Virus record (IMG/VR): IMGVR_UViG_2684622670_000013
Coordinates: 1 to 19,209 of that record
Length of the DNA: 19,209 nucleotides
Origin: a virus
Taxonomy: Duplodnaviria; Heunggongvirae; Uroviricota; Caudoviricetes
Strand: one strand, 5' to 3'
Below the pieces are notes generated by a model. The model was not told where the DNA came from. It was given only the letters and a program-made list of their open reading frames with translations, and ran no database searches. Below, in pieces: positions 15,413 to 17,745 of this stretch. The first letter of the stretch is position 1. Each line of letters starts with the position of its first letter. A program made the position numbers and the translations under genes.

Positions 15413-16051
15413 ATGTGGGAAGACACAATTCTTACCCAATACTCAGCAAGCAAAAAATTGCTATCTATCATTGATACTTTTGATCAGGCAGTTAACCTTG
15501 ATGATTTCACTGATGAGTTTATTACAAAAGTATGGGATTTGACCACATGTGAAACATTCGGACTAGATATGTGGGGTAAAATAGTTGGAATAAGTCGTTA
15601 TATTAATGCTCCAATAGAAACCAGTTCTTTCGGATTCAGTGAGGCTAATAGTGCGGACATAAATTACCCAACACCTTTCAATGGAGATCCATTTTTTGGT
15701 GGGATACAGGAAACAACGAATGTTAGGCTGAGTGATGATGCTTACAGAACTCTTATATTTTGCAAAGCGTTCACAAACATTAGTATTGCTACAATTCCAG
15801 AAATCAACCGGTTTCTAAAGATATTGTTTTATCAAAGAGGAAGAGCATACTGTGTAAATTATCGTGATATGACAGTAGGAATAACATTCGAGTTTGAACT
15901 TGCACCATACGAAGAATCTATTCTTACGAATTATGATGTAACACCTGTTCCGAGTGGTGTGCTCGTAGGAATAAACCAAGTGGTAAGTCCTTACTTTGGA
16001 TTTTCATCAGATGCTTATCCGTTTAATGATGGTACATTTTACAGAGATTAA
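15413..16051 (+). CDS. Tail protein, gpI / Mu gp48-like (DUF2313, YmfQ-like)
   Basis: 212 aa, GAGGG ribosome-binding site, immediately upstream of the tail fibre gene. Resembles e14 YmfQ-type proteins (from memory). Confidence 0.68.
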   Translation: MWEDTILTQYSASKKLLSIIDTFDQAVNLDDFTDEFITKVWDLTTCETFGLDMWGKIVGISRYINAPIETSSFGFSEANSADINYPTPFNGDPFFGGIQETTNVRLSDDAYRTLIFCKAFTNISIATIPEINRFLKILFYQRGRAYCVNYRDMTVGITFEFELAPYEESILTNYDVTPVPSGVLVGINQVVSPYFGFSSDAYPFNDGTFYRD

Positions 16052-16053
16052 AT

Positions 16054-17250
16054 ATGAATCGTTCAGACGCGCCAAAAAAACAAACTAAACCATTTGGAAT
16101 CAATGGACAGAGGGGGGAGATTTTACCAACAACTCCGTCAGGTGATAATACAGCATCATATGACTTAGGATTTCCTCCAATAACCATGATCCTTAAATCT
16201 GCAGGGGGATTACCACCAAAAGGTCAAGATATGAATCAAATTCTGTTTGAACTATCTTCTCTATGTAGATGGTTTAGTGCAGGAGCAATAAACTCTTTTG
16301 ATAGTGATTTTGCTATCGGTATTAATGGTTATCCAAAATACGCTCTTATAGTTTCAGATGATGGCAGCGCTTTGTATTTGAACACTGTCGATGGAAATAC
16401 TAATAATCCAAACTCAGTAAGTGATGGATGGTTAAATCTTATATCATATTTAGGCATTGATGAAAAACAGGGTAAAAACCAGAACTTAACTGCGTTATCA
16501 TCTCTTTCTGGAATACCGGATGGATTGGCATTTTTTACAGGTGCCGGAACAATGGATATGACAGCGCTGACTCAAAATGGCAGGGAAATTTTAAGTAAAA
16601 AAAACGTATCGGAAACTCTACAATATTTAACACTTGGTGATGGAACAGGAAGGCTTTTGGGGGTTCAGGCATTTGGATCATCTGGGACTTATCACAAATC
16701 ACCTGGTGTAACGAAAATTATAGTGGAAGCCGTTGGTGGAGGTGGTGCCAGTGGTAATTTGTCGGCAACTGCATCTGGTAACTGTGGTGTAAGTGCTGCC
16801 GGTTCCAACGGGTCATATGCTAAAGCATTTTTTTATCAGTCTATACCTGAATCCGTGCAAGTAACTATTGGAAGCGGTGGTGTAGCAGGAACAGGACCAG
16901 GAGGCTCTGGAGGTGACGGTGGGAATACAAGCTTTGGTGATTTGCTTGTATGTCCGGGAGGAAGGGGATCAACTCAAGTTCAGCAGGTACCTCCATTTTC
17001 AGGGGGCAGTGCAACAGAAGCATCAATTCCTACAGGGCAAGGGATTCTGTTCCATTCAGTTTCACGATCAAATTTATGTGGGGCACTTGGACTTGGTGAT
17101 GATCAGGCGATTGGCATTGAAAGTATAACCACTACTATGCTTGGGACATACGGTATTGGCGGGACAGGTAAATACAATAAGGCGTCATCAGGTCCAGCGA
17201 CAGGAAATAATGGAAATCAGGGATATATTCTTGTGTGGGAGTATCAGTAA
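16054..17250 (+). CDS. Tail fibre protein with glycine-rich C-terminal domain
   Basis: 398 aa. Start is 2 nt after the upstream stop. C-terminal half is strongly Gly-rich (VEAVGGGGASGN...VTIGSGGVAGTGPGGSGGDGGNTSFG...GIGGTGKYNK). AT-rich compared with the upstream tail genes. Confidence 0.72.
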   Translation: MNRSDAPKKQTKPFGINGQRGEILPTTPSGDNTASYDLGFPPITMILKSAGGLPPKGQDMNQILFELSSLCRWFSAGAINSFDSDFAIGINGYPKYALIVSDDGSALYLNTVDGNTNNPNSVSDGWLNLISYLGIDEKQGKNQNLTALSSLSGIPDGLAFFTGAGTMDMTALTQNGREILSKKNVSETLQYLTLGDGTGRLLGVQAFGSSGTYHKSPGVTKIIVEAVGGGGASGNLSATASGNCGVSAAGSNGSYAKAFFYQSIPESVQVTIGSGGVAGTGPGGSGGDGGNTSFGDLLVCPGGRGSTQVQQVPPFSGGSATEASIPTGQGILFHSVSRSNLCGALGLGDDQAIGIESITTTMLGTYGIGGTGKYNKASSGPATGNNGNQGYILVWEYQ

Positions 17251-17456
17251 TGAGCGATATTTATGCAGTCGTACAAAATGGTGTCGTTACAAATCTTGTT
17301 GTATGGGATGGTAAGTCAGAGTTTAAGCAAGAAAAAGCGGATATAGTTAAATGTGTTGGAGATGTTGGTATTGGCTGGTTATATGATGGTAAAAAATTCA
17401 TCAAGCCCTCCTTAAAACCAGATGTAGTTACTCCTCAAGATGAGTTAGTCAGTTAA
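17250..17456 (+). CDS. Small protein downstream of tail fibre (68 aa), possible tail fibre assembly/chaperone fragment
   Basis: I prefer the ATG at 17250 (MSDIYAVVQNG...), which has a GGGAG ribosome-binding site and overlaps the fibre gene stop, over the ORF-track start at 17235. It is much shorter than typical tail fibre assembly proteins. Confidence 0.45.
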   Translation: MSDIYAVVQNGVVTNLVVWDGKSEFKQEKADIVKCVGDVGIGWLYDGKKFIKPSLKPDVVTPQDELVS

Positions 17457-17465
17457 TTGTTAGTA

Positions 17466-17499
17466 CGCTGGAGATTTTGATAATTTCCAGCGCATTTTT
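17466..17499 (+). terminator. Terminator-like hairpin (CGCTGGA...TCCAGCG) followed by CATTTTT
   Basis: 7 bp GC-containing stem extended by A-T pairs, then a T-run, 10 nt downstream of the last plus-strand tail gene. Confidence 0.5.
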
Positions 17500-17745
17500 C
17501 CTTCTGCAGTAATGGATGAAATACCGCGAGTATAATGTTTTTATGCATATGAACCGTTTAAACCAGAGGAGTCCTGACGAAATTGGTTATTGCGCCGAGA
17601 GTTGTCGGAGGGGGGTGATATAGGTTATCTAATGGAGTAATCATTTTAACATTAATCAGTTTCCCCATGACATCCTCTAAACCCTATATAAACGATTTCC
17701 TGCTACTGGCATTCAAACGAAATAATTTGAAAGCAATTTAAAGAT

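Follow-up and report, generated by a model that had tools for sequence, protein, structure and literature searches.

A glycine-rich tail-fibre tip and its proposed single-domain mini-chaperone in a Pam3-like minimal myovirus prophage of E. coli

Introduction

What does a protein of only 68 amino acids do when it is encoded directly behind a phage tail fibre, at a place where one looks for an assembly chaperone? Tail-fibre tips and their chaperones decide the host range of phages, and such parts are swapped to re-target phages and tailocins. The initial annotation of this locus had remarked that the downstream gene is much shorter than typical chaperones, and so it is: the Caudo_TAP profile has 131 positions, Pam3 gp25 has 162 residues and the Tfa protein of phage Mu has 175. 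In published models the conserved key function of Tfa proteins resides in their C-terminal domain. The 68-residue protein has no such domain and may, for that reason, do something other than classical chaperoning. Our preferred and, we think, probable answer is that fibre and small protein constitute a Pam3-type tip with a translationally coupled "mini-chaperone" that corresponds to a chaperone N-domain, the two being exchanged as a cassette.

The prophage and its baseplate genes

The window (the whole stretch of 19,209 nucleotides that was analysed) belongs to an E. coli prophage of the minimal, Pam3-like myovirus type and holds the distal end of its late operon. Between 11146 and 17456 the order of its genes parallels that of Pam3 gp17 to gp25: the syntenic series runs from a Pam3_gp18 plug homologue (PF22479, E 1.7e-24) through the sheath initiator, Baseplate_J and the DUF2612/Phage_Wedge1 protein to the fibre and the small ORF, directly after which a hairpin closes the late tail operon (Table 1). 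The fibre docking sites of Pam3 sit on gp23 (PMC9942802); synteny makes it likely that the wedge protein is the docking site here. An NCBIfam search returned no match for the wedge protein, the fibre or the small ORF.

Table 1. Features at the distal end of the late operon (window coordinates)
Feature	Position	Strand	Basis or remark
Peripheral baseplate wedge protein (DUF2612/Phage_Wedge1)	15413..16051	+	Pfam PF11041, E 8.5e-50; position of Pam3 gp23
Tail fibre gene, 398 aa	16054..17250	+	Stop codon TAA 17248-17250
Backbone-specific N-terminal part of fibre, aa 1-135	16054..16458	+	Probably baseplate anchor
Linker, aa ~136-194, motif common to many tail-fibre families	16459..16635	+	PHROG matches
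Host-range cassette: fibre aa ~136-398 plus small-ORF aa 1-60	16460..17430	+	Mosaic similarity
TNF-like plus glycine-rich receptor-binding tip, aa ~195-398	16636..17247	+	Own HMM, E 9e-89
Shine-Dalgarno-like GGGAG, 8 nt 5' of small-ORF ATG	17237..17241	+	Read from sequence
Single-domain protein, 68 aa, proposed cognate mini-chaperone	17250..17456	+	Homologous to chaperone N-terminal fibre-binding beta-sandwich
Intrinsic-terminator-like hairpin, 11-bp stem, then T-run	17466..17500	+	Terminator scan and sequence

The fibre and its glycine-rich tip

Both ORFs lie where the initial annotation had put them, and its identification of the first as a tail fibre is sustained by a match to phrog_12796 ("tail fiber protein", E 3e-55), by matches to other tail-fibre PHROGs, and by 913 homologues, many of them named tail fibre or glycine-rich domain-containing protein. 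The N-terminal ~135 residues would fasten the fibre to the wedge protein. They share 64-66% identity with the N-termini of annotated tail fibres of the Edwardsiella phages Edno5 and GF-2 and, to the same extent, with a Vibrio phage record that carries no annotation; they also resemble the particle-binding N-terminus of Acinetobacter phage tailspikes, and they are absent from the other E. coli prophage backbones carrying the same tip. When the full fibre was compared with the phage collection by tblastn, cultured phages were matched only via this anchor. Residues 127-206 match several tail-fibre PHROGs (phrog_454, 2631, 7032 and 11303).

Glycine accounts for 22.6% of residues 200-398 versus 12.1% of residues 1-199; the background, the median for the last 200 residues of ORFs from related loci, is 9.5%. 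Pfam Gly_rich_2 (PF21722) matches residues 212-390 with 31 bits against a cutoff of 24.3 bits, and the same assignment, precomputed, is present in many homologues. The AF2 model, a monomer of a presumably trimeric protein, has a mean pLDDT of 68 and is poor outside the glycine-rich domain (below 50 at the N-terminus), with values of ~90 over residues 200-300. Foldseek relates it to the Bxb1 tail tip (2.5e-7) and to the Pam3 fibre gp24 (7ypx_A, 4.5e-7), with 7ypx_A, 7yfw_a, 9d93_Qa/Qb and the LTK/ALK TG domains all found at probability 0.9-1.0. The domain ends an ORF that stands, in the Pam3-syntenic order, directly downstream of the wedge gene. The specialised glycine-rich receptor-binding half that the initial annotation had proposed is thus upheld (22.6% glycine, PF21722, a gp24-like fold), while its supposed distinctness from common fibre tips is not: with PF21722 and 913 homologues, the fibre falls, as an ordinary member, into a class that is both described and widespread. 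Of the "glycine-rich repeats", what stands are short motifs within the folded domain (GGGGASG, GSGG, GPGGSGGDGG); Tandem Repeats Finder detected no tandem repeats over 16000-17500.

How would such a tip work? Its extended glycine-rich strands would pack into a lattice, and its variable distal loops would touch the host receptor. Residues 339-360 are the least conserved and have pLDDT values below 50, and the distal loops at about residues 341-360 are likely to be the variable part. [quoted passage not shown]

The small protein and its kin

An alternative GTG start at 17235 would yield a protein of 73 residues, but homologues begin MSD(I/T)YAVV, which identifies the ATG as the real start. Fibre stop and small-ORF start overlap as TAATG, suggesting that translation of the two is coupled. 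The protein has a folded core (residues 1-54) and a variable tail (residues 55-68; pLDDT 61-73) that is probably disordered. Its family is phrog_14370, of unknown function (E 5.5e-25; residues 1-57 on positions 1-61 of a 63-position profile), and at E<=1e-3 it gathers 268 cluster representatives, the majority of which have 50-85 residues. The lengths of homologues are bimodal (~50-85 and ~120-140 residues), and 28 of the 85 short forms have a long one as nearest neighbour, 29 of the 61 long forms a short one; one-domain and two-domain forms appear, from these sequence relationships, to interconvert repeatedly. (A technical note on searches: against cultured phages, megablast of the region yielded no more than a 37-bp hairpin; with the small ORF as query, tblastn retrieved nothing from the phage collection, probably because the query is short and the low-complexity filter was on; a weak Pfam DUF5874 match, E 0.011 and below cutoff, was disregarded.)

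Kinship to the chaperones emerged from a mixed profile, hhalign and fold comparison. The 68-residue protein has no match at E<=1 to the Caudo_TAP profile (PF02413), in which the conserved helical C-terminal domain predominates; of 73 relatives scanned, 22 have Caudo_TAP towards the C-terminus, and a profile of mixed lengths matches Mu Tfa (6e-8) and Pam3 gp25 (1e-3). A profile built from short forms only aligns by hhalign with the N-domain of gp25 over 55 columns (probability 73%, E 3e-5), and the best PDB match of the small protein in Foldseek is 7ypx_a (TM 0.60, E only 0.038), the next match being 100-fold worse. With the small ORF as query, phmmer matched no PDB sequence, and hmmsearch of the short-only profile against PDB gave only spurious matches to designed "Cake" repeat proteins. 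Since the short-only profile and the Foldseek E value are weak, the link to gp25 rests on several converging signals, each of them moderate. The protein aligns with only the N-terminal half of ~130-residue Caudo_TAP proteins. Its homology covers one domain of the two-domain chaperones, the N-terminal one, which vindicates the intuition that this is a short chaperone. [quoted passage not shown] A search of the available literature found no description of a single-domain Tfa, which is not proof of absence; the proposed single-domain chaperone variant is, on that search, the undescribed part of this locus, the fibre type being known.

Linkage and exchange of tip and partner

Do tip and small protein belong together? 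In 30 of 44 dereplicated IMG/VR clusters a match to the glycine-rich HMM lies directly upstream of the small ORF, at a gap of -3 to +40 nt; in about 10 more the upstream protein contains 27-41% glycine; of the remaining clusters three lie at the edge of a contig, which leaves a single one that clearly differs. Adjacency is kept in about 40 of the 41 informative clusters. Genomes of Pseudomonas, Burkholderia, Lysobacteraceae and Beijerinckiaceae have the same arrangement (nine loci found with a narrower profile, a sampling of taxonomic breadth). Pairwise identities of tip and small ORF co-vary, with a rho of 0.34 that was reached in 0 of 2000 permutations; part of this could be simple co-inheritance of neighbouring genes.

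Exchange is seen directly, because fibre residues ~136-398 and the small ORF are 95-98% identical in nucleotide sequence to three loci (L001, L002 and L003) that have three different, unrelated prophage backbones and integration sites. In blastn, the stretch similar to L002 and L003 starts at 16460, and the left recombination junction lies at about this position, in the linker. Judged from this mosaic pattern, tip and mini-chaperone are inherited and exchanged together as a host-range cassette of ~1 kb. The initial annotation had reached horizontal exchange by another route, from AT-richness. Exchange itself is confirmed by the mosaic similarity to other prophages; AT-richness holds for the N-terminal part of the fibre (36.4% GC), the small ORF (36.2%) and the wedge gene upstream (36.0%) but not for the glycine-rich domain, and it is a weak argument for exchange because that domain has an average GC content (45.5% versus a window mean of 44.9%).

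What might the small protein do?

We envisage that the 68-residue protein corresponds, in position and structure, to the N-terminal beta-sandwich "tentacle" of Pam3 gp25 (Caudo_TAP/Mu Tfa class). It would most likely bind the side of each nascent TNF-like/glycine-rich domain, one-to-one, and, so bound, would keep the tip soluble and correctly folded. Trimerisation would fall to the N-terminal and linker region of the fibre, because its partner is devoid of the C-terminal helical trimerisation domain.

Must the small protein leave once the tip has folded? Alternatively, it would bind the glycine-rich tip but remain in the mature fibre, of which it would be an accessory subunit: a lateral clamp or cap, say, lending the tip stability or modulating access to the receptor. 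We consider this unlikely, though by no means negligible. It draws on the same homology, fold and linkage evidence as the mini-chaperone; the missing helical domain is the one thought to drive assembly; the variable, probably disordered tail (residues 55-68) could be surface-exposed; and Mu Tfa, crystallised in a stable complex with its fibre (5yvq), provides a precedent. However, gp25 was not detected in Pam3 virions (PMC9608196), and the 68-residue protein carries no sequence mark of a structural component.

That the small ORF is the stump of a recently truncated two-domain assembly gene in a decaying prophage is very improbable. Its alignment with only half of the Caudo_TAP proteins would fit, and real truncation does occur in the family: the 78-residue P0157 looks like a frameshifted version of the 131-residue P0165. 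But the phrog_14370 match is end-to-end, 85 of 146 representatives, from many lineages, are no longer than 85 residues, 13 contigs carry the identical protein, and the length is unchanged among its relatives in three prophage backbones. A Tfa C-domain HMM found nothing in six frames of the whole window (best score below 0), and the terminator follows directly after the stop codon. The dN/dS ratio is below 1 (0.23-0.38 against diverged homologues; 0.55-0.83 against near-identical copies, which is uninformative, the differences clustering in the variable tail). With no downstream C-domain remnant and a conserved short family, truncation, for which the initial annotation had proposed a check, is largely refuted: this is a full-length conserved protein.

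Still less probable is an unrelated cargo gene (a moron), serving for instance superinfection exclusion or lysogenic conversion: the ORF does lie at the end of the prophage, adjoining a variable region where one related prophage has a GDSL esterase, and it has neither Pfam nor NCBIfam annotation, but it overlaps the fibre stop and precedes the operon terminator, it trails glycine-rich fibres across Proteobacteria and metagenomic viruses, and it is homologous to chaperone N-domains in structure and sequence. Scarcely credible at all is an idea of which the initial annotation had itself raised a version (low-complexity noise), namely that the fibre's glycine-rich half has no specific fold or function and is disordered or of low complexity: G, S, T, A and N make up 57-68% of some 40-residue windows, and the glycine-rich domain alone was unmatched by tblastn against the phage collection (probably an effect of the low-complexity filter), but the above-cutoff Pfam domain, motifs conserved across hundreds of homologues, AF2 confidence and significant fold matches to solved glycine-rich domains refute it.

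Returning to the mini-chaperone, one can generalise: phrog_14370 and its relatives (~55-75 residues) may be stand-alone monomeric "clamp" chaperones for TNF-like/glycine-rich tips, a large unannotated family. We advance this tentatively, being close to evenly divided about it.

Implications

The swappable unit, a glycine-rich tip with its 68-residue partner, is only ~1 kb long and has a natural junction in a conserved linker. If the mini-protein suffices for folding, it would be the smallest fibre chaperone known and a module convenient for engineering. The current model, in which the conserved Tfa C-terminal domain drives fibre assembly, would then have to be qualified, and, should the "clamp" reading hold, the C-terminal trimerisation domain would be dispensable for a whole class of fibres. 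Thousands of "hypothetical protein" genes beside genes for "glycine-rich domain-containing protein" could be given a provisional name.

Comparison with known systems

The closest reference is the gp24/gp25 pair of Pam3 (PDB 7YPX/7YFW; PMC9608196, PMC9942802), from which the present pair departs in both members. The fibre has 398 residues versus the 280 of gp24, its tip is only ~24% identical in sequence, and its N-terminus is unrelated to the helical shaft of gp24, resembling instead the anchors of enterobacterial, Edwardsiella and Acinetobacter phages; gp25 possesses a C-terminal helical trimerisation domain that its 68-residue counterpart lacks entirely. Like Caudo_TAP genes, the small ORF is directly downstream of its presumed client. 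The Caudo_TAP (PF02413) members Mu Tfa (gene U, 5YVQ), lambda Tfa and P2 gpG, however, carry the conserved C-terminal domain that is missing here, and the fibres that they serve in Mu, P2 and lambda end in different tips.

The gp38 adhesin of Salmonella phage S16 and of the T2 type (PDB 6F45), which the Pam3 authors consider related to gp24 (PMC9608196, PMC9942802), likewise has a receptor-binding domain with glycine-rich motifs and variable distal loops. But gp38 is a separate adhesin capping the gp37 fibre, whereas the glycine-rich domain here is fused to its fibre; its chaperone requirements are different, and it was not among the Foldseek matches of the fibre model. The TG ectodomains of ALK and LTK share the supradomain fold of the tip (Foldseek 9e-4 to 3e-2); these are domains of animal cytokine receptors, and the similarity is weak and devoid of any functional relation to the fibre. 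The best Foldseek match of the fibre model is the tail tip of mycobacteriophage Bxb1 (9D93, chains Qa/Qb). Bxb1 differs in morphotype and host, and the match, with 16-20% identity, has a large rmsd; it shows, nevertheless, that siphovirus tail tips make use of the glycine-rich fold as well.

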